Of a stretch of 46,343 nt of DNA, positions 15,823 to 30,865 are shown one piece after another. The stretch's first letter is position 1. Each line of letters starts with the position of its first letter. The position numbers and the translations under genes were made by a program. The notes below the pieces were generated by a model. That model did no database searches and was not told where the DNA came from. It was given only the letters and a program-made list of their open reading frames with translations. The DNA lies in contig MEZX01000002.1 of assembly GCA_001774395.1 (NCBI GenBank), positions 226,753 through 273,095 of the forward strand. The letters are read 5' to 3'. This DNA is from Candidatus Berkelbacteria bacterium RIFCSPLOWO2_01_FULL_50_28 (GTDB lineage Bacteria; Patescibacteriota; UBA1384; 2-12-FULL-50-11).

Positions 15823-15837
15823 GCCACTTCACAAGAA

Positions 15838-15870: not shown

Positions 15871-15875
15871 ACTTC

Positions 15876-17501
15876 TTAGCGAAGTGTTAGTACGACGCTG
15901 GTAACCTCGCAGTCGTCGTAGGTGTCGGTTAGCTCAGGGATGACGGTTTCGATGTCGATTAGGTTCTTGCCGGCCTTCAATTTGGACGGCGAAAACTCGA
16001 AACGAAACTGCTCCCATGTGTCGCTGGTCGCCACGGCCCGGCCGACTTCGTGTCGGTTGAACGAGACGATCGGGTCTTTGCGCGGCACGGCCCTCACCTT
16101 AAGAGTGATAACGGCCGTTTTTTTCTCGGCGAGCTGCTCGGCGGTTAGCTTGAACTCGGCTGCCCAAACGGTTTTGATGCCGGCTTCGTCGTCGCCGAGT
16201 CGCACTGTTTTCTCCAGCAGCTTGATCGTTACTGGGCCGGTCGGTCCCTCCACGTAACCCGGGTAGCCTTTTGGGGCAACCGTGGCGCCGTTTGGCCAGT
16301 AGACGTAACCAGTAACATGATCGGTCTTGGCGATATCGATCTCACGTTCGCGGATCAGTCCATCCAGATTCAAACTCCAGTTGCAGTCCCACAGTTTCCA
16401 AACTGTGCCCGTTACGTGCTCTGTTAGAAGGGCGACGTGACCGTAGCCGGAGACTTCTTTCCCCCAAACCATAATAGCGCCAACTTTTGGTGTGCTACCG
16501 ACACCGTAACCGGCGTTTTTACAGTTTGCATACCAGTGGTGGGCGTTCGAGTCGCTCGTTGCAGTGATCGGCACTAACGGAATCGATTCGGGTCGCACAG
16601 CCTGGACAAACCAAGTGCAGTTGCGCTCTGGAAAGACGTTCTTCAGATTGAACACGTCCCAGCCGGTGGCTTTCTTGTACGCGGCCTGCCAAGCGGCCTT
16701 CTCTTTATCCGGATCGAACTTCTGCAGTTCGCCGAGTGTGACGCCGCTAACGAGCACATCACGGTAGCTACTGCCGTACAGCTTCTCAAACATCTTGTCT
16801 TTGAGCAGTAGCGACCTGGCGACGGTCGGCTGATGGGTGGCGAAGAGCTGGTGCAGGAGACCGGGATTGTCGTTGGCCGTTGTTTCCAGCCGTCGCATCA
16901 GTGCCAAGCCGCCGCTAGGGTCAAACCCGGCTTTGACGGCCAGCTCGAATCCTTCACGATCGGCTTGCTCTTCGTCGCGACGCGAGTGACCGGAGGAAAA
17001 AAGTTGAGAGGCGATCTCGGCTACAAAGCGTGCCTTGCGATCGCTTATTGAACTCAACACTACCGAACCGATCAAGCTATCGCGTAACTGTTTGAAGCCG
17101 TGCGAGCGGTTGGTGTGCGTCAGCTCATGCGCGAGAACGAAGCCGATCTCGTCGTCGCTGATGCCGCGCAAATCTGCCAACCCGTCGTTGATCAGGACCT
17201 GACCGCCCGGCAGAGCGTAAGCGTTGATCTCGTAGTTCTGGAGCAGAGTCAGCTGGTAGCTGAAGTCCTTTCTCTTCTCACCGGTGTCGACCAGTTTGTC
17301 GAAAACCTTCCTGATGCGCAGGTACAGATTGGAACCGTCTTCCTTGCTGAACCGTTGGGTCAGGTCGTCTTGGCCAAGTTCGCCTACCAAGCGTTCGGCT
17401 TTAGTTCCACCCCCAATGATAGTGGCAAGGTTGAAGAGCTTCTCCCACGGATCGTCCTGCGGTGCGGCTAGCACCAAACTTGCAATCACGAGTGACAGCA
17501 T
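15876..17501 (-). CDS. secreted M48 metallopeptidase + CHAP amidase/peptidase fusion protein
   Basis: The N-terminus is signal-like (LSLVIASLVLAAP). 'HELTHTNRSHG ... EEQADREG' marks the M48 domain. 'NCTWFVQAV ... GYGHVALL' gives the CHAP Cys/His pair. A beta-rich C-terminal domain follows. GGAGGAGG precedes ATG 17501, and GTG 17510 is also possible. Confidence 0.8.
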   Translation of the reverse strand: MLSLVIASLVLAAPQDDPWEKLFNLATIIGGGTKAERLVGELGQDDLTQRFSKEDGSNLYLRIRKVFDKLVDTGEKRKDFSYQLTLLQNYEINAYALPGGQVLINDGLADLRGISDDEIGFVLAHELTHTNRSHGFKQLRDSLIGSVVLSSISDRKARFVAEIASQLFSSGHSRRDEEQADREGFELAVKAGFDPSGGLALMRRLETTANDNPGLLHQLFATHQPTVARSLLLKDKMFEKLYGSSYRDVLVSGVTLGELQKFDPDKEKAAWQAAYKKATGWDVFNLKNVFPERNCTWFVQAVRPESIPLVPITATSDSNAHHWYANCKNAGYGVGSTPKVGAIMVWGKEVSGYGHVALLTEHVTGTVWKLWDCNWSLNLDGLIREREIDIAKTDHVTGYVYWPNGATVAPKGYPGYVEGPTGPVTIKLLEKTVRLGDDEAGIKTVWAAEFKLTAEQLAEKKTAVITLKVRAVPRKDPIVSFNRHEVGRAVATSDTWEQFRFEFSPSKLKAGKNLIDIETVIPELTDTYDDCEVTSVVLTLR

Positions 17502-17562
17502 TACTGCCACCTCCTCCCCTGATTTTCAGGGACAAAATATAAGGAAAGTATAGCACCGGCGA

Positions 17563-17591
17563 TTGATCACGGACACGTTTTGCACTAGAAT
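17563..17591 (+). promoter_or_regulatory. sigma70-like promoter
   Basis: TTGATC, 17-nt spacer, TAGAAT, 27 nt upstream of GTG 17618. Confidence 0.45.
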
Positions 17592-17617
17592 AACGCTGTT
17601 CCATACGGAGGTGTTTT

Positions 17618-17872
17618 GTGGATCGCGTAACGAGAAGTATCGTTTCTTGGGCTCTCATCGGTGCTGTGGTTGGATTGGTCTACGGTTATTACACCGAAAA
17701 GCCGTACGATCGGCCGGGCAGCAACAGCCCGAGCTACTGGGCGTCCGACGAGGGCAGGGCAGTACAGTCGCAGCTGACCAAGAAGATCGGTGGTCAAGGC
17801 CTGTCCGGCTTGGCGATCGGAGCACTTGTCGGCGCGCTGGCCGCCGCCGTTGCCGGCAACAAGAAAGAGTGA
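17618..17872 (+). CDS. small glycine-zipper membrane protein
   Basis: 84 aa. GGAGG lies 6 nt upstream of the GTG. There are two hydrophobic segments, the second being 'GLSGLAIGALVGALAAAVAG'. Confidence 0.55.
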   Translation: MDRVTRSIVSWALIGAVVGLVYGYYTEKPYDRPGSNSPSYWASDEGRAVQSQLTKKIGGQGLSGLAIGALVGALAAAVAGNKKE

Positions 17873-17892
17873 GCGTTTGGTTTCAACTACCA

Positions 17893-17920
17893 GCGGTCGC
17901 GGGGGTTCCCCCGCGGCCGC
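17893..17920. terminator. strong GC hairpin between convergent genes
   Basis: GCGGTCGCGGGGG / CCCCCGCGGCCGC forms a 13-bp stem with one G:U pair. There is no good T run. Confidence 0.45.
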
Positions 17921-17924
17921 TCTC

Positions 17925-18608
17925 TTACTTGGTCTCTTGTCTCAGTCGCTCTTTTGCTCCTTCAATTGTCGTACCAAATATCTTCTCGATTTGTACGGTG
18001 CAGTCAGCGTCGCCTGGCAGGGAAATCATTCTCGCAATCACGCTTTCGCCGTATTGCTTTACCAGGTGACTAACAAGAAGGAATGAAATACGATAGCCGG
18101 AATGAGCAATGAAATCGTTGTAGCCCGTATTTGCTACGAAATGGTGATCGAGGAAATACTCAAGTTTTTCCGCGTCAATCGGCCGCCCGCTGTCTTGTCC
18201 GGCGACGTACTGCGCCAATCCCTCGTTCACCCAGTCAAGAGTAGGTTTGTTGATAGCTTGGGTGAAAATGTGGGTTAACTCATGGACGACAATTGCTGGA
18301 AACTCTTGCCTAGAGTGTGACGAATATTTCTCCAGAGCGTCGGGGTCTAGAATTATTGTCACACCGTCTTCAACCCGAGCGCTCATCCAGTCTTCAGTTT
18401 CACGCCCAAGCCGATTGTTGTACTCCTGCCGTGAATACATCAGTTCTAATTGAATCGTTTCTGGCAAAGTTGGCGAAAAACTGAAAAACTCGCCAACTTT
18501 TTTTACACTGCTACGAATCACCGCCTCAACCTCTGCAAGTGGATGACTGGTCTCATAATTCATCTCAATCCCAATATTACCGACGACAAACTGTTTTTTG
18601 TTTCTCAT
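17925..18608 (-). CDS. MA-clan zinc peptidase-like protein
   Basis: 'VVHELTHIF' (HExxH) followed by 'WVNEGLAQYVAG', a gluzincin-type third ligand. Confidence 0.6.
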   Translation of the reverse strand: MRNKKQFVVGNIGIEMNYETSHPLAEVEAVIRSSVKKVGEFFSFSPTLPETIQLELMYSRQEYNNRLGRETEDWMSARVEDGVTIILDPDALEKYSSHSRQEFPAIVVHELTHIFTQAINKPTLDWVNEGLAQYVAGQDSGRPIDAEKLEYFLDHHFVANTGYNDFIAHSGYRISFLLVSHLVKQYGESVIARMISLPGDADCTVQIEKIFGTTIEGAKERLRQETK

Positions 18609-18615
18609 GGTTTTT

Positions 18616-19068
18616 CTACAAAACTTTTACAAATATCTGACAAGGGTTATCGCCCCAACCAGGATACGGCGAAATCGTTTCAAGTGGGATAAACCCTAAA
18701 TGCCTATAAAACGCTCTGGTCTTTTTGTACGGTTCGTAACTGTCAGAGTCGGCAAGGGTTTTCACCTCACAGACTTTATATTTTTGTGAAAGTTCCGCCA
18801 AACTTTTTTCAACTAAAGTTTTGCCATATTTCTTTCCTTGAAGTTCCGGTAGTACTCCAAGCCATGTCATCTCTACAGTCTCGCCATTGATTTCATTGTA
18901 AGTGGCAAAACCAATCATCTCATTTTCAAAATAAGCACCGAAAAGAATGTGATTCTTGGTGTCTTGTTCGATAGATTTCAACCCACCCTCATCAAAATAT
19001 TCCGGCAATGTTTTTGCTATCTCGTACGCTTTTTGGGCTTCGTCTGTTTTTCTAATTTCGATATCCAT
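18616..19068 (-). CDS. GNAT-family N-acetyltransferase
   Basis: 150 aa. 'LGVLPELQGKKYGKTLV' is the QxxGxG motif. Confidence 0.8.
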   Translation of the reverse strand: MDIEIRKTDEAQKAYEIAKTLPEYFDEGGLKSIEQDTKNHILFGAYFENEMIGFATYNEINGETVEMTWLGVLPELQGKKYGKTLVEKSLAELSQKYKVCEVKTLADSDSYEPYKKTRAFYRHLGFIPLETISPYPGWGDNPCQIFVKVL

Positions 19069-19096
19069 ATCTTACTTTCTTTATTTAAAACCGGCC

Positions 19097-20089
19097 TCAA
19101 TGCTTAATAATCTTTATCTCCGCCTTGTTCTCTCGGGCGATAATTCGTACTGAACCGCCGATGGGAAAAGTAATCATCGGGCTGGTGTGACCGAAATCAG
19201 CATTGGCGATGATGGGAATATCGGCCAGTTGCGGCCGGATTCGTATAAGCGTCTCCAGATTTGGTCGGGTGATAGTACTCTTCTTCTGAAACCTGCCAAA
19301 AACAATCCCGCGAATATTTTTAATTGGTATTGATTGAAGAAGCGACTCAAATTGACGGTCAAAGTGGAAGTATTGCGACTCGTCGTCGTCTTCCAGAAAG
19401 AGGATTATGTTATCGGTTGGTGGAAAATGCGACGTCCCCTGGAGAAGCTGGACCGTGCTTAAATTACCACCCACAATTACTCCTTCTGCTTCACCCTGGT
19501 TAATCGTCCAATAACCAGTATTCGATACTGGATGACGATCATCCTGATTGATATACCAAGTGTCATCGGTCCATTCTTTCGACGGCAGCAAGTAAAATGA
19601 ATCGACCTCAAAAAGACATTTCTTAAAGTGATCAAGAGTGTAATCAAAATGGAGTTTCTGTCCGAAAGTGGAGTAAGCGGGACCGGAATAAGTGGCTAAG
19701 TTTGCTCGAGCCAACATAGCGTTTTGTAAGGCGGTGGTATCGGAGTAACCAATGAAAATCTTGGGGTTATTTTTTATTAGCTCCCAGTCAAGGTGGGGAA
19801 GGAGTTGGTTGCAATTAAAGCCACCGATAACAGTGAAGATAGCTTTTACTTTCGGATCGGCGAAGGCTTCGTGCAGATCGGCAACACGTGAAGCGATTGA
19901 TGACGAAATGAACTCATCTTCTTCTTCGACATGCTTGCCAAAAGTAACCACGAGCCCGAGTGACTCAAGGCGCTTCGTTGCGATCTGCCTCACATCTTCT
20001 GAAATGAGCGCCAGCGAGTGGGATGGTGCAACGACGCGCACCGTATCGCCTGGCTGTAATTTAGCTGGAATGGTAGTCTTATCTCTCAT
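19097..20089 (-). CDS. ldcA: LD-carboxypeptidase (S66; muramoyltetrapeptide carboxypeptidase-like)
   Basis: 'GDTVRVVAPS', the 'GYSDTTAL' catalytic Ser, and a C-terminal 'FGH' His. Confidence 0.85.
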   Translation of the reverse strand: MRDKTTIPAKLQPGDTVRVVAPSHSLALISEDVRQIATKRLESLGLVVTFGKHVEEEDEFISSSIASRVADLHEAFADPKVKAIFTVIGGFNCNQLLPHLDWELIKNNPKIFIGYSDTTALQNAMLARANLATYSGPAYSTFGQKLHFDYTLDHFKKCLFEVDSFYLLPSKEWTDDTWYINQDDRHPVSNTGYWTINQGEAEGVIVGGNLSTVQLLQGTSHFPPTDNIILFLEDDDESQYFHFDRQFESLLQSIPIKNIRGIVFGRFQKKSTITRPNLETLIRIRPQLADIPIIANADFGHTSPMITFPIGGSVRIIARENKAEIKIIKH

Positions 20090-20204
20090 TTTGAATATAT
20101 GTATTATTACCTATGTTACCGAGATAATTCTACTGGTTATGATACGGGAGGAAAAGAGAATCGCATCTGAAAGTAGTAAAATACAATCAGGAGTGAATGG
20201 CAAA

Positions 20205-20702
20205 ATGATTATATTTATTAACGGATCGATCAACTCTGGAAAGACGACAGTCGCCAAAGAACTGCAAACGCAGATTCCTAAATGCGCCGTTGTTGAGATT
20301 GATGCTTTTCACGATTTTGTACCATGGATGGAGCTCAACGAAGTATTGCCTCTAAATTACAAAAACGCCATCGATGTTATCCGTAACTTCGCCCAGGCTG
20401 GCTTAACAGTAATCGTGCCGTACCCGCTCTCAAAAGCTCGGTTCGAAGAATTGTCGGCAACGCTCAAAGAATTCGGGCCAATTCATGCTTTTACTCTAAA
20501 CCCAAACTTAGAAGAGACACTTAAGAACCGCGGTACCAGAGTATTAACAAACGAGGAGAAGGAGCGGATACGATATCACTATCAAATTGGAATCAACAAT
20601 CCCGGATACGGCAAAGTGATCAACAACACCAACCAAACCGTAAAGCAAACAGCCGGTGAGATACTGGAAGCGATCAACATGGTAGATACTAACTCGCGAT
20701 GA
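20205..20702 (+). CDS. P-loop kinase-like protein
   Basis: Walker A 'INGSINSGKTT'. AGGAG is upstream of ATG 20205. The 5' part of ORF 19752..20702 is antisense to ldcA and is discounted. Confidence 0.7.
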   Translation: MIIFINGSINSGKTTVAKELQTQIPKCAVVEIDAFHDFVPWMELNEVLPLNYKNAIDVIRNFAQAGLTVIVPYPLSKARFEELSATLKEFGPIHAFTLNPNLEETLKNRGTRVLTNEEKERIRYHYQIGINNPGYGKVINNTNQTVKQTAGEILEAINMVDTNSR

Positions 20703-21334
20703 TTTATTTAATTGGCGGTCCGCCAAAATGCGGAAAAACTACGCTCGCAAAAAGGTTGGCAGATAAATACCGAATTTCCTGGATCTCGGCCGACACACTC
20801 GAGAATATTGTTTGGGCGTACACATCAGAAGAAAAGCGTCCCTCTCTCTTTCCGCACAGCTCTTCGCGAGGAGACAGCAACGATCAGTTCTACTCGGATC
20901 ACTCCGCAGAAGAAATAGTCAGAAACTATATCATCCAGGGTGAAACTACTTATGACGCCATCAGTATGATGGCAGAAACTTACCTCACAGATAAAGACGA
21001 CTATATCGTTGAGGGGTTTCAGGTCGCACCGGAGATTGTGGATCGCATTTTCAAAAAATTCGGCCAAGATCACGTCAGAGCAGTCTTTCTTGTACGACAA
21101 GACGAACAGAAGTTCATTCAAGACATTCACAAGTCAACCACACCAAACGACTGGGTGATCCAAAAGACGAAAGATGAGGCCACGTACGGAAAGATTTCAG
21201 CGATGATCGCCGAATACTCCCGCTATTTTGAGATGGAAGCGGAAAAGTACGGCTTGAGAGTTTTCAGCATGGACGAGGATTTTGACCAACAGCTCGACGC
21301 AATAGAAAATCATCTGAAGTCCTCGCGAAGTTGA
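20699..21334 (+). CDS. P-loop kinase-like protein
   Basis: Walker A 'GGPPKCGKTTLA'. An ATGA overlap joins it to the previous gene. Confidence 0.7.
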   Translation: MIYLIGGPPKCGKTTLAKRLADKYRISWISADTLENIVWAYTSEEKRPSLFPHSSSRGDSNDQFYSDHSAEEIVRNYIIQGETTYDAISMMAETYLTDKDDYIVEGFQVAPEIVDRIFKKFGQDHVRAVFLVRQDEQKFIQDIHKSTTPNDWVIQKTKDEATYGKISAMIAEYSRYFEMEAEKYGLRVFSMDEDFDQQLDAIENHLKSSRS

Positions 21335-21361
21335 GGATTAGAAAATGGTACCGATAGGGTG

Positions 21362-21390
21362 TTGACTGGCAATCCAGCAAAGACTAGATT
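21362..21390 (+). promoter_or_regulatory. sigma70-like promoter at the left edge of the AT-rich island
   Basis: TTGACT, 17-nt spacer, TAGATT, 48 nt upstream of ATG 21439. Confidence 0.4.
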
Positions 21391-21438
21391 GGCGACAGAA
21401 TGTTTAATGGTTCAGGTAATCGAATTTGTGAGTAATCT

Positions 21439-21924
21439 ATGAAAAGAGTGCCAACCGGCATTGGTTCGTCGTATCAAACTTTGAATGATAATCTGTCAAG
21501 TGAAGCGAGTAACTCAGAAATATGTAACAAATCTATAGGTCAAAAGTTCAAAACAGTCACTATTATCGGAAGCTATAGAAAGCATCTTGATGGAATTATC
21601 AAAATTAAAGCAGAGCTAGAGTTGCAAGGGGTTAGAGTCCTCAGTCCGAGATTTACTCAACCTATTAATCGCGATGATGAATTTATCACTTTTGTTGGCG
21701 AGGAAAAGATGACTCATTCTGAAATTGAAAAAGTTCATTTAGATTCAATTACAAAATCAGATGCAGTTATAGTTTGTGATAAGGGTGGTTATGTCGGGAA
21801 TGCGACATTATTTGAGATAGGCTATGCTTACGCCCTGGGTAAAAGAATTATTTTTACGTCAAAACCAGAGGAATATTTACTTAATATTCTGTTCTGTGGA
21901 ATAGAAATCAATTCAACCTTATGA
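21439..21924 (+). CDS. nucleoside 2-deoxyribosyltransferase-like (NDT/Rcl-fold) protein
   Basis: The flavodoxin-like pattern is 'VTIIGSY..', 'GVRVLSP', 'SDAVIVCDKGGYVGNATLFEIGYAYALGKRIIF'. The last segment resembles the NDT-family 'S.G...E.G.A.A.GK' motif. Confidence 0.5.
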   Translation: MKRVPTGIGSSYQTLNDNLSSEASNSEICNKSIGQKFKTVTIIGSYRKHLDGIIKIKAELELQGVRVLSPRFTQPINRDDEFITFVGEEKMTHSEIEKVHLDSITKSDAVIVCDKGGYVGNATLFEIGYAYALGKRIIFTSKPEEYLLNILFCGIEINSTL

Positions 21925-21940
21925 TGTTTGGAGGTAAAAA

Positions 21941-23593
21941 ATGAAAATAAAATATGAAGATTATTTTATTGTGCCAACAGGAAAACAAAAAAAACTATTA
22001 GCGAAAACAATTGATTTGGCAATGAAATTTTACGACGGATCGTTAAGGGATAATAAGTTCCTTGTCTACAGAACGCCAAGATATTTTTTTGATAAACTTA
22101 ATCGGACAATTCCCTGCAACCCTTCAGACGTGGAAAAAAGTTTTGATTTACTGGAGGAGGTAGGGAAATACTCGATTAGTCAATTCGACAAAACGTATTT
22201 AAGTTTTCCAGATTCTGGCAATAGTTTGCCTGGAATGATGGGAGCGATATTTGCTAAGCTGATCAACCAAAATTTATGCGCATTTGATCGGTCGGCTCCA
22301 ATAGCTACTGTTATGGAAATACAAATCATTGAATGGCTCAGAGAGCTTATAGGGTATAAGAGTAAAGAGTTGAAAGATATAAAATCTTTGTCAGAAGTGG
22401 GCGGCATGTGTGTTTCCGGGGGACATATGGCCAATCACATTGGCGTTATGGCGGCCTTGAATAATAAGTTCCCCGAGATAAGAGAAAAGGGGTTGGCCAA
22501 GTTAGGTTTTACGCCAGTAATATTACTATCGAATAAGATATCGCATTATTCTTTTCTTGAAGCAGCTCACCATCTTGGTATCGGAAGAGATAGTGTTGTT
22601 GATATACCAACAACACAAAACTTTACAACGAATTATGAGAAATTAGAGCAGGTGTTAAAAGATCTTCCAAGAGACAAGGTGCCCTTTATGGTAGTTGGGG
22701 TTGCTGGAAATACCAAGACAAGCAATCTCGATAATCTTGGTAAATTAGCAGATTTTACAAAAAAACATAACCTGTGGTTACATGTGGATGCCTGCCACGG
22801 TGGTAGTTTATTGTTCTCAAAAAAGATGAAAAAACAATTTTTGAGCAGAATCGAACAAGCAGACTCCGTCACAATTGATCCGCATAAAGGTTTGTTTGTT
22901 CCATATCCATCAAGTTATATCCTCTTTAAACGGAGGGATGTCCTATCGTTCTTTTCAAAGCACCCCGAAGAAACGAAAGATAAAAATATATGGGAGCTGG
23001 GGCTCATAACCCCTTTTTATGGATCGCGAGGTTTTGAATCATTGAGTTTATGGATGTTGATATCGGTAATGGGAACAGATGGAATAGCCCAGGTAGTTGA
23101 GTATCGCAGTAAGATTGCAAAATACACAGAAGAATTGATTGAAAGTGCAGATCTTTTTATAGGAATGAATAAAATGGATTTTTACCGCATGGCTTTTGTG
23201 TACTGCCCAAAGAGAATCCGTGAGTATCTGGTCAAATTTGGTGATAAACTTTCCCAACCACAAAAAGTTGATATCTGTAATTTGATAAATAGGTATGATC
23301 GCGAAATAAATCAGAAGCTTTATACGGGCGGAGAAGTTTGCCTCGATAAATACAGTCTTTACGATGTTGGTAACAAGGTTCGTCTTGGAGATGATAAGAA
23401 GTTTTTAGTGATGGCGATAACAATAGGTAACCCATTATTTACAGAAGAAACCATGAAAAAGGCCCTGAACAAACTCTTTAATGATGCGAAAAAGCTCGTA
23501 CCTTTATTTGAGAAAGATTTTCTAGATATTATTAACAGTAAAACCCGTCGTGAGAAACACTGTCGCGATTTTGGCGGTCCAGCGGGATGGTGA
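21941..23593 (+). CDS. group II PLP-dependent amino-acid decarboxylase
   Basis: 'HVDACHGGSLLF' and 'DSVTIDPHKGLFVPYPSSYILFK' (PLP lysine). GGAGG precedes the ATG. Confidence 0.85.
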   Translation: MKIKYEDYFIVPTGKQKKLLAKTIDLAMKFYDGSLRDNKFLVYRTPRYFFDKLNRTIPCNPSDVEKSFDLLEEVGKYSISQFDKTYLSFPDSGNSLPGMMGAIFAKLINQNLCAFDRSAPIATVMEIQIIEWLRELIGYKSKELKDIKSLSEVGGMCVSGGHMANHIGVMAALNNKFPEIREKGLAKLGFTPVILLSNKISHYSFLEAAHHLGIGRDSVVDIPTTQNFTTNYEKLEQVLKDLPRDKVPFMVVGVAGNTKTSNLDNLGKLADFTKKHNLWLHVDACHGGSLLFSKKMKKQFLSRIEQADSVTIDPHKGLFVPYPSSYILFKRRDVLSFFSKHPEETKDKNIWELGLITPFYGSRGFESLSLWMLISVMGTDGIAQVVEYRSKIAKYTEELIESADLFIGMNKMDFYRMAFVYCPKRIREYLVKFGDKLSQPQKVDICNLINRYDREINQKLYTGGEVCLDKYSLYDVGNKVRLGDDKKFLVMAITIGNPLFTEETMKKALNKLFNDAKKLVPLFEKDFLDIINSKTRREKHCRDFGGPAGW

Positions 23594-24750
23594 AGCTTTG
23601 TATACAACCAGAAGAAAAGGAACTCAATAAATATCTCCAACTTGCCGATCATAACAACTTTCAGGTTGAGATAGATGTTGACATGCTGAAATCGAACCCT
23701 AAATTATTTGAACATAGGTTTGTTGGAGTTCATGGGAGTAACTATTTAAGTTCGAGCGAATTAGTTGAAGAATTGGAGATGCTGAGCAGGTTCAACATAC
23801 TTTATGTGGTATATCACGATTCTGTAGTTGAGAAGTTGTTGGATTCATTTTACCTTTCAAACCACCATAAGCTCGTTATTCTAATGGAAAATTGTAGCTG
23901 TCAGAGCGCAAGAGATTTTGATGAGTTATATAGTAAATCTAAACAAAAGATTAACCATTTTAATAAGTGTATTGATACTGGTCATGTGAATTTATCTAAC
24001 GATAAAGACTTGGATAAATGGGCGGATAACGAAGTTAGTCTTTTCCATCTTAATAATAATTACGGCAAGGATACTCATAATTCGTTGTACGATGGTGAGA
24101 TTAATTTTCTAAATATGAACCAGTTGTTAAAAAGTAAATATGTTTCGTTAGAAGTAACTCGGGGGTTTAGAACATATCTGAAAAATATCCAATATATGAT
24201 TAGGCATGGCGTTGTTCCTTTCGATAATATAGCAATGCCACTGAACCATCCAATAATTCAGGAGGAATTCATAGCGAGAGTACGCAGGCTGCTAAGAAAC
24301 CACTTCAAAGGTTCACTTTGTTTCGCCTTCTTTTATGGTTCATTCGTGAGAAAAGAACTGAACACTAGAAGCGATGTAGATATGGTAGTGATTTTAAAAT
24401 CGAAAGAATTAAAAACTGATACATTCTACGGCTCTTATAAAATAGTATGCTCCGAATATAACATCCATTTGGATCCAGAATATCCGTTTGAAATCTTTTC
24501 TGAAAACGACTACCTGAGTTACGTAGATTTGAATACTAGAACTGTCTCTAAGGAAGATATTGCCGATCGGGAGGAGTTATTGTTTTCCTTCCTTGACCAC
24601 CACCTCTGCTTTGTTGGGAGTATGAAACAATTTCAATGCCATCGCAGGGTAGTTGAGAAGGCGGTATTGGGCACAGCCAGAACAGGTAAGGATTGTTATA
24701 CCAAGAGTGATCTGAAATCTATTGTAAGAGCTTATGTTAATGATTCGTAA
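23587..24750 (+). CDS. fusion of a xylose-isomerase-like TIM barrel and a Pol-beta-type nucleotidyltransferase domain
   Basis: The N-terminal half has 'VHGS', 'VVYHD', 'MENC', 'CIDTGHVNL', 'FHLNNNYGKDTHNSLYDGEINF' and 'SLEV'. The C-terminal half has 'FFYGSFVRKELNTRSDVDMVVIL' (GS...DxD). The start overlaps the previous stop (ATGGTGA). Confidence 0.6.
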   Translation: MVKLCIQPEEKELNKYLQLADHNNFQVEIDVDMLKSNPKLFEHRFVGVHGSNYLSSSELVEELEMLSRFNILYVVYHDSVVEKLLDSFYLSNHHKLVILMENCSCQSARDFDELYSKSKQKINHFNKCIDTGHVNLSNDKDLDKWADNEVSLFHLNNNYGKDTHNSLYDGEINFLNMNQLLKSKYVSLEVTRGFRTYLKNIQYMIRHGVVPFDNIAMPLNHPIIQEEFIARVRRLLRNHFKGSLCFAFFYGSFVRKELNTRSDVDMVVILKSKELKTDTFYGSYKIVCSEYNIHLDPEYPFEIFSENDYLSYVDLNTRTVSKEDIADREELLFSFLDHHLCFVGSMKQFQCHRRVVEKAVLGTARTGKDCYTKSDLKSIVRAYVNDS

Positions 24751-26830
24751 CGTCATTTCCACAACTTACCGTCGGTATTACAGTGACCTTCTGGTAGATT
24801 TAGGCATCGGTCAAGACATCAATATGCATCCGCATTACTTGATAAAAGCTAAATTAGAAACTGCCAGTGAGAAACCATCGAGCAAACCAAAATGTGAGGT
24901 ATCAGAGTCAATTTATTATAATTCGAAGAACATTGAGACGAAATTATCATTTCTCAGTAAAGTAAAGTTAGTTGAATTTCTTGGAGAATTGCCACCCCTG
25001 ACCTCCACAAATCTTTTTCTAGACCCCACGAAAAAATTTAAGATTCTGTTAAAGGGTGAGGAAGCTTTCGTAGTGCTAAAAATTCATAATTCTAAAAAAT
25101 ATTTGGCTAACCTAAGGCGAATGAAGAGGTTGATTGAACCTTTGAAAAACATTTTTGCCGTCGATTCAGATTTTGCGATTCTTCACATGGGGAGTGAGTG
25201 TTACTTGGTAAGCAAGTTTCGCGATATGAGTTTAGAAGATTGCACCAAAGAAGAAAAGATAACTCTAAAACAGAGAAAAGATACTATCAAGCATCTGGCC
25301 AACCTGAATGAATTATTTGTAAAGAAGGGCGTATTTTTTTGCGGTTTTGCCCCACGAAATTTTTTAGTTTCAAACAGTAGGATTTATATTATTGATTTTG
25401 AAGATTTGTATTATTCGAAGTCTTTAAGCTCTGAGAACATTAGGTATCTTCAGGACCTTAGGACAGCTCTTTTCTCCGATACTTTTTCTCAGCAAGAGAT
25501 TTCGGAAATATTCGCTTCTGATAAATTAATTCATGTGCCAGAGGACCGTCTAGTAACCGCCGATCCTATTGAGAAAGCGTATTTTCGTAAATCAAGAATC
25601 AAACAAGAAGAGCGAAATACATTATGGGAATATACCAAAAATTTAGAGCAAGTAATCTTTTATAAAAACAGGCCGATATACGGGCATAATATAGGTCAGT
25701 TTTTTTCAGACAACCTTGACCCTAAGCTAGAGGCTTTGTTGATAGAGCGGTTTTATATAATTAACCAGCAAGATCGAACATCGTTTGAAGAGTTAACTAA
25801 TTTATTTGATTTATTGACTGATTATTACAGCGAGAACAAATTCAGGGAATTGTATAATCAACAGATAAGATTCGATTTTGTCCCTCTAATAAAGCAGTGC
25901 TTGAAAGTATTAGAATCTGATTTCGAGAATACTATGGCCTTTGTTAGATATTTCAATCAATCGAACTGTTTGGACAAGTCGCTAAGTTTTAGTGAGAAAA
26001 AGAAGGTTATTGAGTTTGTTAACGATGTGATACATACAAAGATTATTCATAAAACTGACTTTTCCAATATCTCTTTATTCTCAAACATTGTCGCAAAAAC
26101 AGTTTATGGCCCATGGAAAAGCGAAGCTGAAAATATTGGAATTATCAACACAATTTACCCATATTCCCCCAAAAAAATAAAAATATACTCACACCCTGAA
26201 TATGCCACCATTCTGTATGAATATTACGGTAAATCGAATCTATCTTTTGGCGATAGTAAAGAAGCGGCCAGATTGTTAGCGAAGCTTCATAACACAGAGA
26301 TCAATGATCGAATCACCGGAAAATTAAAGTCTAAATACTTAAAACTTGATGACGGTACAATCAAAATGATAACCGAATTCCTTTCAAACCACGGTTACAT
26401 CAAAGATGACTTAGAAATGATTTACGAGAGAGCTGAAGCTTTGAAGAGGGCTTTCCATCCAAAGTCCGTGATACACAACGATTTATATTACGATCAATTT
26501 CATAAGAATAAACAGATGACCTTACTGGATTGGACATATGCTACGGTGGGGTCACCATTTATAGATTTGTCGAGTATTTTAAGAAATGATTACGATAATC
26601 GAAATGCTAAACTTGATAAGAGATCATTTTTAGACGAATACCTAAAATATTCAAAATATAGTAAAGAATTTTCAGATCAAAAATTAATAGAAGGTTTTTA
26701 TATGAACTGTTTCAGGGAAATTGTCTGGTTTATAGAAAGAATCAATTTGGATGAAACTCATGGCGGTGAAGTCGACACTTGGTTAAAAGACGCCGTTAAC
26801 GACTTAAAGCGCAATGAGTTCGTATGGTAG
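24734..26830 (+). CDS. 698-aa protein with two protein-kinase-like-fold domains (N-terminal degenerate, C-terminal APH/choline-kinase-like)
   Basis: The N-terminal domain has 'VVLKI', 'CGFAPRNFLV' and 'IIDFED'. The C-terminal domain has 'VIHNDLYYDQF' and 'LLDWTYATVGSPFIDL'. The gene overlaps the previous one by 11-17 nt. Confidence 0.6.
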   Translation: MLMIRNVISTTYRRYYSDLLVDLGIGQDINMHPHYLIKAKLETASEKPSSKPKCEVSESIYYNSKNIETKLSFLSKVKLVEFLGELPPLTSTNLFLDPTKKFKILLKGEEAFVVLKIHNSKKYLANLRRMKRLIEPLKNIFAVDSDFAILHMGSECYLVSKFRDMSLEDCTKEEKITLKQRKDTIKHLANLNELFVKKGVFFCGFAPRNFLVSNSRIYIIDFEDLYYSKSLSSENIRYLQDLRTALFSDTFSQQEISEIFASDKLIHVPEDRLVTADPIEKAYFRKSRIKQEERNTLWEYTKNLEQVIFYKNRPIYGHNIGQFFSDNLDPKLEALLIERFYIINQQDRTSFEELTNLFDLLTDYYSENKFRELYNQQIRFDFVPLIKQCLKVLESDFENTMAFVRYFNQSNCLDKSLSFSEKKKVIEFVNDVIHTKIIHKTDFSNISLFSNIVAKTVYGPWKSEAENIGIINTIYPYSPKKIKIYSHPEYATILYEYYGKSNLSFGDSKEAARLLAKLHNTEINDRITGKLKSKYLKLDDGTIKMITEFLSNHGYIKDDLEMIYERAEALKRAFHPKSVIHNDLYYDQFHKNKQMTLLDWTYATVGSPFIDLSSILRNDYDNRNAKLDKRSFLDEYLKYSKYSKEFSDQKLIEGFYMNCFREIVWFIERINLDETHGGEVDTWLKDAVNDLKRNEFVW

Positions 26831-27005
26831 GTCTTGGAGATATTATGGAACAATTCCTGAGAACATGTACCGCTTGTTAAGCGGGGCTTAGGGGACGGTT
26901 CTGAATCCGACTTCCAAAAGATACGCCAAGAGTCATGGAGGTAGAGCAGTAAGGCTTTGGGAGCGAATTGCTTGAAGACGGTAGTTATGGTTCAATTGTC
27001 TCGTT

Positions 27006-28043
27006 ATGTACTACTTCTCAACATTTATTTCGGGCTTCCAGGACATTGTTACATCGCTAATCGGGCAGATGCTCAAAGATGTAGAGATAGTCAGCGTTTT
27101 TGACGGCGTTATTCTCTACAAGACTAGCGCTGCCCCTGAGAAGATAAGGGCCACCAAGATCTTTAGTAACTCTTTTATGCTGTTGGGCAGGTATCAAGTC
27201 TCTGCAGACAAAACGCCAGACTACTTGGTTAAACAGTTTCTGGGGTCAAGCAAAGATATGGGGGCAGAGACTCGATCCGAGATAGGAAGAAGCAGGTATG
27301 AAACTTTTCGTGTCATATCTTCGCAACGTAACCAGCTGTACTCAACCGACCGGGTTCTTTTGAAGAGAGTCGAGGACAAGATCTTGAAAAATACTAATCT
27401 GTCGGTGGATAGATTGAACCCGGATGTGGAATTTTGGTTTTTAACCAGAAGCGAAGGCATTGGTTTATTCGGCATGAGGATAACCAAGCATAAGTCCTAC
27501 GATAAAGTTTTGCAGAGAGGTGAGCTCAGGCCCGAGTTGGCGAATCTTATGTGCTGGCTTTCTGAACCAGGCAGTGACGATGTGTTTCTGGATCCTTTCT
27601 GTGGCTACGGCTCGATTCCTTTCGAGAGAAGCGGCATAGCTGAGTATGAAAGAATATTGGCCTCAGATACCGACAAAGATAAACTTAAAGCAGTCGCAGC
27701 TAAGTTCCAATCGACCACCAACAGAAGCAAGATTCTTGTCTCGGCCGACGATTTTTTCAAGATAGCCGCACCAAAGGACTTGGTAGTCAATAAGATAGTT
27801 ACTGACCCACCCTGGGGAGAGTACGAGAAGATGTCGGTGGAGACGGTCAAATTCTACGAGGAGTTTCTGCAAAAATGCTCCGAGCTACTAGCGCCTGGTG
27901 GTATATTGGTGTTCATCAGCTCCTGTAAGTTAGAAATCGACGAAGTACTAAAGAAGCTAGCTCCTAAACTAGCCTTGGAGCAAAGTTATGACATCCTGGT
28001 CTCGGGGAAAAAGGCGAGAATTTATAAGTTTATAAATAATTAG
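27006..28043 (+). CDS. THUMP-domain SAM-dependent methyltransferase (RNA m2G/m6A-type)
   Basis: 'LDPFCGYGSIPFE' is motif I and 'VTDPPWGE' is motif IV. The N-terminal region of about 150 aa has THUMP-like length. Confidence 0.75.
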   Translation: MYYFSTFISGFQDIVTSLIGQMLKDVEIVSVFDGVILYKTSAAPEKIRATKIFSNSFMLLGRYQVSADKTPDYLVKQFLGSSKDMGAETRSEIGRSRYETFRVISSQRNQLYSTDRVLLKRVEDKILKNTNLSVDRLNPDVEFWFLTRSEGIGLFGMRITKHKSYDKVLQRGELRPELANLMCWLSEPGSDDVFLDPFCGYGSIPFERSGIAEYERILASDTDKDKLKAVAAKFQSTTNRSKILVSADDFFKIAAPKDLVVNKIVTDPPWGEYEKMSVETVKFYEEFLQKCSELLAPGGILVFISSCKLEIDEVLKKLAPKLALEQSYDILVSGKKARIYKFINN

Positions 28044-28107
28044 CTAGTTTTTTGCTGTCGCTATCAGATTGTCTCTGTTGAACTGCTCTTCGGTGCGCTG
28101 GAACTGT

Positions 28108-28527
28108 TTAGGCGTACTTCTTTTCTTCTCGCCCAAGAGCGATGGCGGTTAGCTTGTCGACCATCCGTTCCAAGTGTTCTAAATACCAGCCGTGGACTTT
28201 GTCACCCTCTTTATGGTTTTTCAAGATAGCATTTTCGGCGTACGAGTCTAAACTCCAAACTACAACGTGCATCATCTCGTGAACGAGGATGTACTCCTCG
28301 TCGCGGAATGGATTGCAGGACAGCTGGATTACCCCGGTCTTTTTGTCTAAATCAGCTACAAAGTTGCCGCTTTGGCGAAAATCTTTTCTTAAGAAGTCGA
28401 CGATCTGAATTTTCAGATCCCATTCGGTAAGAAAAAGCTTTTTCTGCCACCTCTCCAAGAGTTTCTGTAGTTCCCCTTTGGACAGTCCGCTCTTCTTTTC
28501 AACATCTTTCTTAATTTCGTGTTCCAT
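28108..28527 (-). CDS. small zincin-like (HExxH) protein
   Basis: 139 aa. 'LVHEMMHVVVW' is the only motif seen. The layout resembles small phage or accessory metallopeptidase-domain proteins. Confidence 0.45.
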   Translation of the reverse strand: MEHEIKKDVEKKSGLSKGELQKLLERWQKKLFLTEWDLKIQIVDFLRKDFRQSGNFVADLDKKTGVIQLSCNPFRDEEYILVHEMMHVVVWSLDSYAENAILKNHKEGDKVHGWYLEHLERMVDKLTAIALGREEKKYA

Positions 28528-28571
28528 GAGCGCATCATATCGCTATATTGGTTCGGTTAGGATAGGCGACG

Positions 28572-29309
28572 CTAGTACGACCCAACAAGAGATCGATATA
28601 TCTTGTACGCTCTATCGCCGTGCCAGTCGGCGGGAAGGAGCTCCGTGGGTAAGTGCGGGTCGTCGTGATAGATGCTGGCAAACTGAGCTTCAAGCTCTTT
28701 GGCTGTCAGCGGCCAGTGGGGTGACGAGCGCTTTTTGGCTTTTCGAACATCGGTACTAAATTGCTTATAGCAGTCGTTTATCTCATCAAGCTGCCAAATT
28801 CGTTCGGCTTTGTGTTTCTCTTGGTCGATGTCATCGGTTTCAAGAAGCGTCGTAAATTGCTGAATGCCTAGGTCGGACGTTAATCTGCGAATTGGTGCAA
28901 AAAGCGAGTGCGGGGAGATGTAGACACCGTCTCGCAGCTTCTCAAAACCCAGTTCTTTTAGGGCGGAAAGTAGCTGGATGCGATATTTTTTCTCTTTTTC
29001 AGGCACATCAGTGATAACCAGGCGCCATTTACCGTCCCACGGGCCGTAGGCTTTGTACGCTAGCCGGGGAGCAATTCTTAGACGCCCTTTTTGGGTGACG
29101 ACTGGGTGCTGCTTTCGGTAACGGGTAGAGATGCCAACGAACCCGTCGTGTTTCAGTTTCGAAAACTCCTTGCGCAGAGTTCGGATGGAATGTTGCTTAC
29201 CAACTGTCTCGCTCAGGGCGTTTGACAGGCTTTGATAGCTAAACTTAAAGCGATCTTCTTTCAAGCAGAAGGCTATGTAGGTTAAAATAAGATCCGAATT
29301 TGTTCTCAT
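28572..29309 (-). CDS. PaaX-family-like transcriptional regulator
   Basis: The N-terminus is wHTH-like. The central 'WDGKWRLVITDVPEKEKKYRIQLLSALKELGFEKLRDGVYISPH' is typical of the PaaX (Cas2-like fold) domain. Confidence 0.6.
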   Translation of the reverse strand: MRTNSDLILTYIAFCLKEDRFKFSYQSLSNALSETVGKQHSIRTLRKEFSKLKHDGFVGISTRYRKQHPVVTQKGRLRIAPRLAYKAYGPWDGKWRLVITDVPEKEKKYRIQLLSALKELGFEKLRDGVYISPHSLFAPIRRLTSDLGIQQFTTLLETDDIDQEKHKAERIWQLDEINDCYKQFSTDVRKAKKRSSPHWPLTAKELEAQFASIYHDDPHLPTELLPADWHGDRAYKIYRSLVGSY

Positions 29310-29366
29310 GTACTGATACTTATACAGCTAATATACATCTATATCAAGGTATAACCACTCGGGGAG

Positions 29367-29382
29367 TGTGAATTGCTTCACA
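29367..29382. promoter_or_regulatory. TGTGA-N6-TCACA palindrome (CRP/FNR-type box) in a divergent intergenic region
   Basis: TGTGA (29367-29371), ATTGCT, TCACA (29378-29382), lying between the PaaX-like gene and the alpha-oxoamine synthase gene. Confidence 0.3.
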
Positions 29383-29488
29383 TATAAATGATTTGAGGCT
29401 CTATGGGGTATCCCAATAAAATTACATCAGTAAAGGATTCGTCCTTTCACATCTTGCACGAAACCCCAATCTTTGGGTGGAGGGAACC

Positions 29489-30760
29489 ATGTTTCCAGAT
29501 AACGTTAGAATCGCGATTGATGGATTCCTCGGAGCACTCAAGGAAAGGGGGCTATTCCCCGACCCTGTGTGTGTCGATGGACAAACGACCGAGCCAGAAA
29601 TACTGATCAATGGTAAGAGGGTCATCCAATTTAGTGCCTGTAACTACCTTGGTTTGGCCACTCACCCAGCAGTCAAGGGTATTGCTAAGGACGGGATTGA
29701 CCGATACGGCTTAGCAACCTGCGCATCAAGACTGATCTGCGGAACCACGGATTCGCATCGCCTGCTAGAGTCTGAGCTTACGAAGTTCATGAATTCAGAC
29801 GATGCGGCAGTGTTCTTCATGGTTACGCAGGCCAACGCTGCGGCAATCACGTCAGTCATGGGCGGCCCGAGCAGTATATTGAGTCCGTCGCCTCTGCTCG
29901 ACAAGCTCGGTATTGAGCCGATAAGAGGATCCAAGGAGATCTTCTTCGACTGGTACAGTCACCCTAGTCTGGTTTGGGCTTCCATCGAAGCTGTCTCTAA
30001 AGAGGGTCTGCGACCGTACAGGCATCTTGATATGGCTGATCTGGAGGCAAAGCTCAAGAGGAGTGAGGCGGGGCTGAAACTCATCGTCACTGATGGGTTG
30101 TTTAGCTCCGTTGGCACAATGGCCCCACTACCGAATTTGGTCGCCCTAAGTGAGAAATATGAGGCGATCTTACTGGTGGACGACGCACACGCGACGGGTG
30201 TTCTAGGAGAGAACGGCAGGGGTACATGTGAGCTCTTGGGCGTGGAAGGGCGAGTTGACATCCAGATTGGCTCACTCTCCAAAGCTTTCGCCGGTGGACT
30301 TGGTGGTTTCGTTTCGGGGGATCAGAATCTTATTGATATAATCAGGTTGTCAGGCAGATACATCAATACTGGTTCGCCGACCCCAGCTAACGTACAAGCC
30401 CTGGTGGAGTGTGTTCGAATTGCTCGAGACGAACCTTGGAGAAAGGAGAGTGTCCTCGAGAACGCGAACTACCTACGAGGGAAACTTCACGGGCTAGGGT
30501 TCTCGACGCTCGACAGCCAGGCTCACATCGTTCCCGTTCATATCGGTGACGAAGAAAGGGCAATTGCTGTGTCCAAAGCTCTTTTCGAGAAGGGCTTTCT
30601 GGTGACCGTGTTCAGGTACCCAGCGATCCCGCTTGGAAAAGCGATCCTTCGGATGTGTACAATGGCGACACACACGAAGGAGCACATGGACCAATTCCTT
30701 TGTGCGTTTAGCGAGGTAGCAGAAGACTACAAGGTGCCTCGCTTGGAGGCAGCGAGCTAG
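29489..30760 (+). CDS. alpha-oxoamine synthase family PLP enzyme (AONS/KBL/serine palmitoyltransferase-like)
   Basis: 'NYLGLATHP', 'DDAHATGVLGENGRG' and 'GSLSKAFAG' (PLP lysine). GGAGGG is upstream of ATG 29489, and GTG 29477 is also possible. Confidence 0.85.
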   Translation: MFPDNVRIAIDGFLGALKERGLFPDPVCVDGQTTEPEILINGKRVIQFSACNYLGLATHPAVKGIAKDGIDRYGLATCASRLICGTTDSHRLLESELTKFMNSDDAAVFFMVTQANAAAITSVMGGPSSILSPSPLLDKLGIEPIRGSKEIFFDWYSHPSLVWASIEAVSKEGLRPYRHLDMADLEAKLKRSEAGLKLIVTDGLFSSVGTMAPLPNLVALSEKYEAILLVDDAHATGVLGENGRGTCELLGVEGRVDIQIGSLSKAFAGGLGGFVSGDQNLIDIIRLSGRYINTGSPTPANVQALVECVRIARDEPWRKESVLENANYLRGKLHGLGFSTLDSQAHIVPVHIGDEERAIAVSKALFEKGFLVTVFRYPAIPLGKAILRMCTMATHTKEHMDQFLCAFSEVAEDYKVPRLEAAS

Positions 30761-30779
30761 CGATCGAATGTAACAGACC

Positions 30780-30812
30780 GGGCGCCCCATAACTGTGGGC
30801 GCCCCTTTTTAT
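30780..30812 (+). terminator. rho-independent terminator
   Basis: The self-complementary GGGCGCCC occurs twice (30780-30787 and 30797-30804), then CTTTTTATT. Confidence 0.7.
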
Positions 30813-30865
30813 TACCACGATACATTTAGGTTAGAATGCGAGTAGCGCTATGATGAATATCTAAT

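Follow-up and report, generated by a model that had tools for sequence, protein, structure and literature searches.

Biosynthetic gene clusters (BGCs) that carry a gene for an aminoacyl-tRNA synthetase (aaRS) use it either for self-resistance, as is the case for mupirocin with IleRS, indolmycin with TrpRS and the tiarins including ArgRS-targeting relatives of trifolitoxin, or for the supply of aminoacyl-tRNA, as exemplified by VlmL in valanimycin formation. To our knowledge, natural inhibitors of arginyl-tRNA synthetase (ArgRS) are very rare. Trifolitoxin is an example (2025 preprint, 10.64898/2025.12.02.691738), and the tiarin BGCs, which encode an aaRS of the same specificity as the target, provide the precedent for an in-cluster aaRS gene that serves in immunity or as a supplier of aminoacyl-tRNA (10.64898/2025.12.02.691738). 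Here, we describe an AT-rich island of four genes (g1 to g4; positions 21340-26830) on contig MEZX01000002.1 of Candidatus Berkelbacteria bacterium RIFCSPLOWO2_01_FULL_50_28 (GCA_001774395.1); the whole stretch analysed, 46,343 nt in length, is referred to as the window. We propose, with confidence that is evenly balanced, that the island was acquired horizontally, encodes the biosynthesis of a metabolite related to arginine or ArgRS and represents one version of a widespread uncharacterised enzyme cassette. Like the clusters named above, the cassette is associated with one full-length aaRS, namely ArgRS, and it differs from them in that the ArgRS of the window is native and lies 7 kb away.

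The island encodes the following proteins:

21439-21924, plus strand: g1, open reading frame (ORF) of 161 aa
21941-23593, plus strand: g2, ORF of 550 aa
23587-24750, plus strand: g3, ORF with two halves, a TIM barrel (23587-24231) and a nucleotidyltransferase (NTase; 24232-24750)
24734-26830, plus strand: g4, ORF of 698 aa with two halves, a kinase-like domain (24734-26053) and an APH domain (26054-26830)

The conserved part of this gene set is a triad consisting of the g2 decarboxylase, the N-terminal kinase-like domain of g4 (g4N) and the NTase of g3, which are found fused with each other and are co-inherited across phyla. The triad occurs in bacteria of the Candidate Phyla Radiation (CPR), a DPANN-like archaeon, Streptomyces, Kitasatospora, Bacillus velezensis and on a Roseibium plasmid. 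A g4N-like domain is encoded in all 22 of the 22 fetched loci in which the decarboxylase shares at least 37% identity with g2, and the following fusions were encountered:

g4N with the decarboxylase: Streptomyces locus L015 (1032 aa), P0082, P0125, P0148 and P0176
NTase with g4N: an archaeal metagenome-assembled genome (MAG; locus L013, 611 aa) and P0152
g3 with g4 over their full length: L096 (1075 aa) and P0133 (1101 aa)
g4N-like domain with NTase, a family of 600 aa: Kitasatospora, Streptomyces, Roseibium and B. velezensis

In the 600-aa family, the N-terminal half shows homology to g4N (hhalign probability 98.1%, E 1e-13) and the C-terminal half bears the NTase motif. As gene fusions have occurred repeatedly and in different orders, the triad proteins would be expected to act together, probably as a complex. 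The accessory genes of the actinobacterial clusters encode a PHP phosphoesterase, a sulfotransferase, APS kinase, glycosyltransferases, radical-SAM/SPASM enzymes and a methyltransferase, and in the clusters from Actinobacteria, Roseibium and Bacillus genes for glycosyltransferases, GDP-mannose 4,6-dehydratase, an epimerase, sulfotransferases and carrier proteins are found. In B. velezensis (L012; CP178718, 1430406-1448067), the genes form an apparently strain-specific island upstream of ampS-ykpC-mreBH-abh-kinC, which contains genes for an AMP-binding enzyme, a hydrolase, two carrier proteins, a GT2 glycosyltransferase, a HAD-like protein, the decarboxylase and an ArgRS of 577 aa; its first gene, fetched in part, is of the 600-aa kinase-like plus NTase type.

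The second recurrent element is the gene for ArgRS, which is present in 17 of the 22 loci mentioned above at a distance of 0.2-7.3 kb. In 16 related loci it is located inside or adjoining the cassette (0.2-6.5 kb), and it is 7.3 kb away in the window; four of the five loci without it are contigs that end at the cluster. The control consisted of 78 loci in which the group II decarboxylase is more distant and for which equal flanks had been fetched; none of them contained ArgRS. In a contig scan with the g2-family alignment, the search patterns were generic for group II decarboxylases and mostly distant paralogues were returned: L015 and L016 alone belong to the clade, L017 and L018 are borderline, and the other 76 served in the negative control. 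The position of the ArgRS gene varies:

Parcubacteria-like loci L007-L009: directly after the four-gene block
B. velezensis island: 181 nt after the decarboxylase gene
archaeal MAG: two genes before the decarboxylase gene, with arginine deiminase (ADI) in between
L096: one gene after the fusion protein
type-A clusters of Actinobacteria (six): on the other strand at a distance of 1.3-2.9 kb
Streptomyces L016 and Kitasatospora L095: at a distance of 6.5 kb
window: 7.3 kb upstream of g2

Within the Actinobacteria, ArgRS travels with the cluster and not with the genus; the proteins from Streptomyces L016 and Kitasatospora L095 are 91% identical, and the L016 protein shares only 50% identity with that from Streptomyces L015. 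In the archaeal MAG (L013, JBDRHF010000098, 1-9833) and in L014, ArgRS, ADI, the decarboxylase and the NTase-kinase-like fusion form a four-gene set that is flanked on one side by a GatD-type gene and on the other by a partial gene encoding a GatB_N domain (GatE-like). This set may be an insertion, since gatD and gatE are normally adjacent in archaea.

Because the cassette almost always adjoins an ArgRS gene in distantly related microbes, its product is probably an arginine-related small molecule. On this basis, we infer that the cassette would act on arginine or an arginine-derived intermediate, that the decarboxylase would yield an agmatine-type amine and that the kinase-like/NTase pair would spend ATP on the activation or nucleotidylylation of a partner group. 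The accessory proteins of the CPR versions, i.e., the metal-dependent TIM barrel as a phosphodiesterase or sugar isomerase, the APH-type kinase and the NDT-like N-glycosidase, might then tailor a phospho- or nucleotidyl-linked small molecule, while in Actinobacteria the accessory slots would be held instead by PHP phosphoesterase, sulfotransferase, glycosyltransferases and radical-SAM enzymes. ArgRS could be the resistant target of the producer, in which case the product would be an ArgRS-directed antimetabolite, it could supply Arg-tRNA for one of the steps, or it could merely be co-regulated. A bolder version, which we consider rather unlikely, would have the triad and ArgRS define a new family of biosynthetic clusters with a very wide phylogenetic range (CPR, DPANN, Actinobacteria, Bacilli and a proteobacterial plasmid). 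Its product would be an antimetabolite that is derived from arginine, is linked to a nucleotide or phosphate and either acts against ArgRS or depends on Arg-tRNA for its synthesis.

A number of observations weigh against a metabolite related to arginine or ArgRS. The nearest named models of g2 are decarboxylases for acidic amino acids (PanP, GAD, CSAD) and not arginine decarboxylases. In the Roseibium plasmid cluster, the sole true exception, ArgRS was not found within 12 kb. The ArgRS of the window is native in composition and 7.3 kb off, and eight ORFs, not all of them on one strand, lie between it and the island; its proximity may be a chance event, the probability of which is roughly 1-2% for a genome of ~1 Mb. 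Among the CPR and DPANN cassettes, the adjacent ArgRS proteins are only 25-29% identical, compared with 53-73% for the decarboxylases, so that ArgRS may be the sole housekeeping copy of the respective host. Locus L098 has retained ArgRS after the loss of most of the block. Finally, the AlphaFold2 model of g4, calculated from an alignment of seven sequences, is too poor for use (pLDDT 43.5).

Turning to the individual proteins, g2 is predicted to be a group II pyridoxal 5'-phosphate (PLP)-dependent amino-acid decarboxylase of a distinct and highly conserved clade. It matches PF00282 with 163 bits (cut-off 27, E 8e-48), and both the PLP-binding lysine K316 in DPHK and D283 in DACHGG, which binds the pyridine nitrogen, are invariant across 23 sequences, as is a C-terminal GPAGW in the clade. 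The protein falls under every NCBIfam equivalog cut-off, the best model being that for the aspartate 1-decarboxylase PanP (170.8 vs 606.1 bits), and the nearest PDB entries are 8zpi, GAD65/67, CSAD and a tryptophan decarboxylase; a literature search for 8ZPI gave nothing relevant. Identity amounts to 73% with the Parcubacteria versions, 62% with that of the archaeal MAG and 40-45% with those from Streptomyces and Bacillus, and relatives at 40-63% identity originate from the archaeal MAG, Bacilli, TM6, Amesbacteria, Saccharibacteria, B. velezensis and Kitasatospora. With 236 clusters at E ≤ 1e-30, the clade is far more widely spread than g3 or g4, for which eight and only two other 90% clusters, respectively, exist among 5.8 billion proteins.

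The N-terminal ~440 aa of g4, which have lost the catalytic aspartate, belong to a new family of the protein-kinase fold that is not covered by a Pfam model. When a g4N profile was compared with the PDB, eukaryotic-type protein kinases were matched across the catalytic loop (E 4e-6). This loop reads GGFAPRN and is followed by IIDFE; the catalytic Asp is replaced by Gly, and the Mg-binding Asn (PRN) and the DFG-type Asp (IDFE) are kept. All g4N members that are linked to a decarboxylase have a G-G/Q-G catalytic loop, whereas stand-alone relatives, in which no Pfam domain was found, have RD or RN. The family is rare, as only 67 representatives in a set of 1.84 billion proteins reach E ≤ 1e-3. 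The g4 N-terminal domain itself is always accompanied by an ATP-using partner. Its C-lobe contains the invariant acidic residues D249, E280, E305, D326 and E333, which might suit a cationic substrate of the guanidinium type. The C-terminal ~258 aa of g4 match PF01636 (APH; E 6e-9, 36 bits, residues 510-623) and have kept the catalytic loop IHNDLYYDQ, in which Gln replaces the usual Asn, as well as LLDWTxAxxGSPFxDLS. Only the generic APH model was hit, and models specific for choline kinases gave no match. The APH domain is restricted to CPR-type versions, i.e., the window, L007-L010 and L096 (L011 ends ahead of the C-terminal part of g4).

The two halves of g3 are predicted to be a metal-dependent, xylose-isomerase-like TIM barrel and a minimal Pol-beta/MNT-type NTase. 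The former matches PF01261 (AP_endonuc_2) with an E-value of 2.4e-4. An AlphaFold2 model was good for the barrel only (pLDDT 87-96 for residues 1-150, 56-92 for residues 151-220, below 60 for the NTase part), and with Foldseek the best matches of the modelled barrel were ketose 3-epimerases (3vnl, 5b7y), TTHB071, UVDE and C-/O-glycoside lyases. The barrel motifs GVHGS, YHD, LEN, DTGH, HLNNN..DTHN and SLEV are kept in nine homologues. The NTase half matches PF18765 (E 3e-6), and its hG[GS]-x9-13-DxD motif (YGS...SDVDM) is invariant in homologues. In Streptomyces, the g3-type NTase is encoded by a separate gene (179 aa), and the slot after it is filled by a PHP phosphoesterase, which hints that the CPR TIM barrel may be a phosphoesterase and not a sugar epimerase. 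A scan of the contig collection with g3 alone as the query gave zero matches.

The first protein of the island, g1, is predicted to belong to the nucleoside 2-deoxyribosyltransferase/Rcl/CMP N-glycosidase superfamily. It matches PF05014 (NDT) with 32.6 bits, above the gathering cut-off of 28.8 (E 9.5e-8), and carries an N-terminal extension of 38 aa that is absent from its homologues. These comprise 116-144 aa and precede the decarboxylase in L007, L008, L009 and L011. A profile of five homologues had its best PDB matches in the CMP N-glycosidase BcmB (4jen) and an NDT (6evs). The alignment spans the motif GxxxxEIGxAxxxGK, and the nucleophile, Glu126, is shared by all five proteins.

With respect to its origin, the island is foreign to its host, and the evidence supports horizontal acquisition. 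Its GC content is 0.360, compared with 0.539 in the left core (1-18000) and 0.495 in the right core (29401-46343) of the window; the shoulders have values in between (0.443 for 18001-21339 and 0.460 for 26831-29400). The edges are sharp, with GC falling at 21300-21400 and recovering at 26700-26800 in 200-nt windows. At third codon positions, GC is 0.28-0.38 in the four island genes vs 0.52-0.74 in flanking core genes, and in tetranucleotide composition the island lies at a distance of 0.52 from the remainder of the window, vs 0.12-0.21 for other parts. An annotation made from the sequence alone, hereafter the first-pass annotation, had already described an abrupt drop in composition on the basis of six hand-counted lines of 60 nt, and these counts were exactly reproduced (18, 19 and 16 G+C inside the island, 24, 28 and 36 outside). 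Its suggestion of horizontal acquisition gains support from the nearest identifiable homologues, which sit in genomes of ~30% GC including a MAG named Parcubacteria. As the Parcubacteria-like loci L007-L009 and L011 have ~30% GC throughout, the donor was probably a low-GC CPR bacterium. Beyond the island, the window contains genes for aaRS, ADI, peptidoglycan-peptide recycling enzymes, a type IV pilus cluster and an S66 peptidase, a content that looks like that of a CPR (Saccharibacteria-like) genome with ~50-55% GC. Among the features of a classical genomic island, aberrant composition and sharp borders are present, and integrase, tRNA target and flanking repeats were not found: the scan of island and window revealed no tRNA gene and no Rfam match, integrase or transposase ORFs are lacking inside and beside the island, and the direct repeats that flank it are short matches at chance level. 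The first-pass annotation had likewise seen no integrase, transposase or direct repeats.

The order NDT-like small gene, decarboxylase, TIM barrel/NTase, double kinase recurs on the contigs of relatives:

L009: Parcubacteria group bacterium MAG GCA_007376575.1
L007: GCA_002581605.1, with an adjoining insertion sequence (IS)
L008: a contig from soda-lake sediment
L010 and L011: two Logan contigs, the former without g1

The first-pass annotation would have regarded its reading as refuted if, among other things, the four genes never occurred together elsewhere or each had a close characterised orthologue in housekeeping; in fact, they co-occur in the same order in L007-L009 and L011, and none of them has a close characterised housekeeping orthologue. 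In these four loci, identity to the window is 73% for g2, 45-49% for g3, 50% for g4 and 32-43% for g1. L010 is more similar (80% for a fragment of g2, 69% for g3, 71% for g4) and lacks g1 and the 5' half of g2. L098, a close relative of L009 (ArgRS 95.6% identical), looks, in the region 6118-8178, like a decayed copy: just the 3' ~390 codons of g4 are left, and this remnant overlaps a Zn-ribbon fragment of a recombinase encoded on the opposite strand. Genes for trehalose-6-phosphate synthase and phosphatase precede it. Since the block decays in such close relatives (L010, L098), it is dispensable. In the P0011 contig (ERZ1426827), a resolvase and a Gp49/HTH toxin-antitoxin pair are encoded near the block. 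Directly upstream of the block, the same contig encodes a HisKA_7TM-GAF histidine kinase and a response regulator, a pair that is present in the window 4 kb downstream of the island (30866-33139).

The four island genes are translationally coupled. The overlap between g2 and g3 is ATGGTGA (23587-23593), and that between g3 and g4 comprises 17 nt (24734-24750), or 11 nt with the start of database protein P0001 at 24740. Owing to this start, two codons later, an exact look-up of the 698-aa g4 gave no match. Two signals were noted on the same strand:

21362-21390, plus strand: promoter-like TTGACT-N17-TAGATT in the 105-nt gap ahead of g1, 9/12 matches in the scan
21930-21934, plus strand: GGAGG ribosome-binding site of g2, six nt ahead of its ATG, read from the sequence

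The overlaps with the ensuing coupling and the strong GGAGG had all been pointed out in the first-pass annotation and are borne out, just as its domain assignments for the four products are upheld. The -35/-10 pair that it had called good is present at 21362-21390; its status as a promoter is unsupported, although not refuted, because such sites are no commoner in the region (18) than in shuffled sequence (21.8 +/- 4.9), and it is a candidate only. After g4, a spacer of 175 nt (26831-27005), which extends to the UPF0020 methyltransferase gene starting at 27006, contains the short perfect hairpin CCGCTT-GTT-AAGCGG; a consensus scan of this spacer gave neither a T-tract nor a terminator.

Upstream of the island, the following genes of the window were assigned with Pfam:

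11317-12582, plus strand: arginine deiminase
12706-14607, plus strand: ArgRS
14734-15822, plus strand: ArgZ-like protein
20205-20702, plus strand: CPT-like P-loop kinase-like ORF, directly upstream of the island
20699-21334, plus strand: AAA_33/cytidylate-kinase-like ORF, with an ATGA overlap (20699-20702) with the CPT-like ORF

The arginine cluster (11317-15822), 5.6-10 kb upstream of the island, is native in composition (GC 0.54-0.58). The GC content at third codon positions of the two P-loop ORFs (20205-21334), 0.49-0.53, lies between that of island and core; homologues of these ORFs were not found in any related locus, and their membership in the operon is uncertain. In the left shoulder, the S66 LD-carboxypeptidase (19097-20089, minus strand) is 55.6% identical to the product of the S66 gene two genes after the block in L009, and the ArgRS proteins of the window and L009 are only 27% identical; the similarity of the S66 genes may reflect older co-acquired DNA or conserved synteny. 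Farther away, in the type IV pilus cluster, the PilB/T2SSE ATPase of 630 aa (42801-44693, minus strand) has an unusual architecture, in which an N-terminal match to the HU/IHF-type Bac_DNA_binding domain (PF00216, residues 5-91, E 1.3e-5) precedes MshEN and T2SSE.

We weighed several other explanations for the island. One of them is arginine catabolism or agmatine supply, in which g2 would act as a novel decarboxylase for arginine (or ornithine) and support energy or pH homeostasis, or the demand for polyamines or agmatine, in arginine-dependent ultra-small symbionts, with the other genes salvaging nucleotides or cofactors. CPR-like organisms rely on arginine deiminase, ADI and ArgRS adjoin the cassette in the archaeal MAG, the ADI-ArgRS-ArgZ-like genes are nearby in the window, the gene content of the host is CPR-like (type IV pilus, peptidoglycan-peptide recycling), and g1 and the P-loop kinases upstream resemble enzymes of nucleotide salvage. 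Simple decarboxylation, however, needs no fusion of decarboxylase, kinase-like domain and NTase, the triad is found in Streptomyces and Kitasatospora clusters that resemble those for secondary metabolites (sulfotransferase, radical-SAM, glycosyltransferase, own ArgRS), and the decay of the block in close relatives speaks for its dispensability. We consider this explanation improbable.

No more probable is the surface decoration of the Kennedy/Lic type that the first-pass annotation had listed first among its options. It assumes that the decarboxylase provides an amine or amino-alcohol, that the APH-type kinase phosphorylates it and that an NTase-fold enzyme either activates it or attaches it to a lipid, glycan or teichoic acid. 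The NTase fold includes LicD and fukutin, the C-terminal domain of g4 is choline-kinase/APH-like, and the glycan-type genes in the clusters of Actinobacteria, Roseibium and Bacillus would fit the tailoring of a glycoconjugate. The idea is nevertheless not borne out, as neither LicC-type (LicC/ECT cytidylyltransferase) nor LicD matches were obtained in Pfam and NCBIfam and the neighbours in the related loci are not cell-envelope genes (ArgRS, S66 peptidase, CYTH and ATPase in the CPR loci). Furthermore, the APH domain stands outside the conserved core and is confined to CPR versions, and both the ArgRS linkage and the Asp-less kinase-like domain are left unexplained.

Phosphotransferases and nucleotidyltransferases are classic resistance enzymes. 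The annotation had also considered modification of an aminoglycoside- or nucleoside-like small molecule; ANT-like and APH-like enzymes plus an N-glycosidase could inactivate an antibiotic or nucleoside derived from host or competitor. The NTase has indeed weak matches to ANT(9), ANT(3'') and Lnu, as has the C-terminal part of g4 to APH. The NCBIfam scores are, however, far under the cut-offs (ANT(9), 23.2 vs 340; Lnu(G), 18.5 vs 525) and no APH subfamily model was matched, a PLP decarboxylase plays no part in known resistance mechanisms, and the biosynthetic-type genes and ArgRS alongside the triad in other phyla favour synthesis. This makes detoxification very improbable. The chance that the island is a nucleotide-centred module for conflict or anti-phage defence, the remaining option of the annotation, appears remote. 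Defence systems repeatedly make use of NDT/SLOG-type folds, minimal NTases and kinases, the g3 NTase matches the PADLOC candidate PDC-S09 (E 9.5e-8), and the block is mobile and dispensable (IS by L007, recombinase remnants in L098, resolvase and toxin-antitoxin near P0011). Nonetheless, PADLOC-DB 2.0 yielded no system, with generic NTase-domain matches for g3 only, none for g1 and g4 and just SspA (E 0.064) for g2; zero PHROG matches were obtained, the block was not found in IMG/VR viral contigs, its neighbours are not defence genes, and neither a PLP decarboxylase core nor a link to ArgRS is known from any defence system.

Other candidates are dismissed: zero PHROG matches and absence from IMG/VR speak against a phage origin, the TfxB/TfxC enzymes and precursor peptide required for membership in the tiarin/trifolitoxin group are not present, and cobamide-loop remodelling (CbiR model, 16.7 bits vs a cut-off of 105), CoA salvage, agmatidine (TiaS-like) tRNA modification and thymidine hypermodification lack a supporting model match and leave the contents of the actinobacterial clusters unexplained. 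Judged by its sequence, the cassette is not recognisable as a defence system, a Kennedy pathway or an antibiotic-resistance operon. The statement of the first-pass annotation that no pathway or defence system with this gene set has been described also holds; no counterpart of the set was found in curated model libraries (PADLOC, NCBIfam, PHROGs) or in 8.3 million full-text papers.

If the island is indeed a biosynthetic cassette for an arginine- or ArgRS-related metabolite, it would be a previously unnoticed enzyme cassette that crosses domain borders and harbours new biochemistry, and its near-obligate genomic tie to one essential enzyme of translation would offer a possible link to a drug target, aaRS-linked clusters having been a productive route to new antibiotics so far. 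Its presence in CPR and DPANN genomes, which are poor in recognisable biosynthetic pathways, would bear on the interaction of symbiont and host. Should even the bolder version with an antimetabolite apply, the ultra-small CPR/DPANN symbionts would own a pathway for a chemical weapon or effector, and g4N would be a new family of catalytic pseudokinases. As the cassette is also present in cultivable strains of Bacillus velezensis, Streptomyces and Kitasatospora, the question is directly testable.

In comparison with known systems, the cassette differs from the tiarin clusters by the absence of TfxB/TfxC FMN dehydrogenases, YcaO and a precursor peptide; its core consists instead of a decarboxylase, an Asp-less kinase-like domain and a Pol-beta NTase. 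An analogy may be drawn with aminoacyl-adenylate mimics of the microcin C type (MccB; MccD/MccE for the aminopropyl group), for which nucleotidyl transfer is likewise combined with a PLP decarboxylase and where the product would target an aaRS. MccB, however, is ThiF/E1-like and not of the Pol-beta type, the MccE decarboxylase has fold-type III and does not belong to group II, the cassette lacks a gene for a precursor peptide, and compounds of the microcin C type target AspRS. With the Lic/Kennedy systems (LicA, LicC, LicD), the cassette shares an APH/choline-kinase-type domain and an NTase-fold enzyme in one operon and a step that would produce an amine; it differs in that LicC/LicD matches and an envelope context are missing, the kinase domain is accessory and the linkage to ArgRS would have no explanation. 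The protein g1 resembles NDT/Rcl and the CMP/dNMP N-glycosidases of antimetabolite pathways (BcmB of bacimethrin, MilB, BlsM) in that the nucleophile Glu is kept and BcmB is the best PDB match, but beyond the catalytic motif the match is very weak (E 0.01-0.1), and g1 is confined to the CPR versions of the cassette. By analogy, g4N may be likened to pseudokinases with non-kinase ATP chemistry, such as the glutamylase SidJ and the AMPylase SelO, which likewise combine the kinase fold with loss of the Asp. It bears no sequence relationship to either of them and could equally be a non-catalytic scaffold or a substrate-binding subunit. Taken together, what would be new about the cassette is its enzymology and its kinase-fold family, while in kind it would correspond to something known, namely an accessory small-molecule cluster tied to an aaRS gene.

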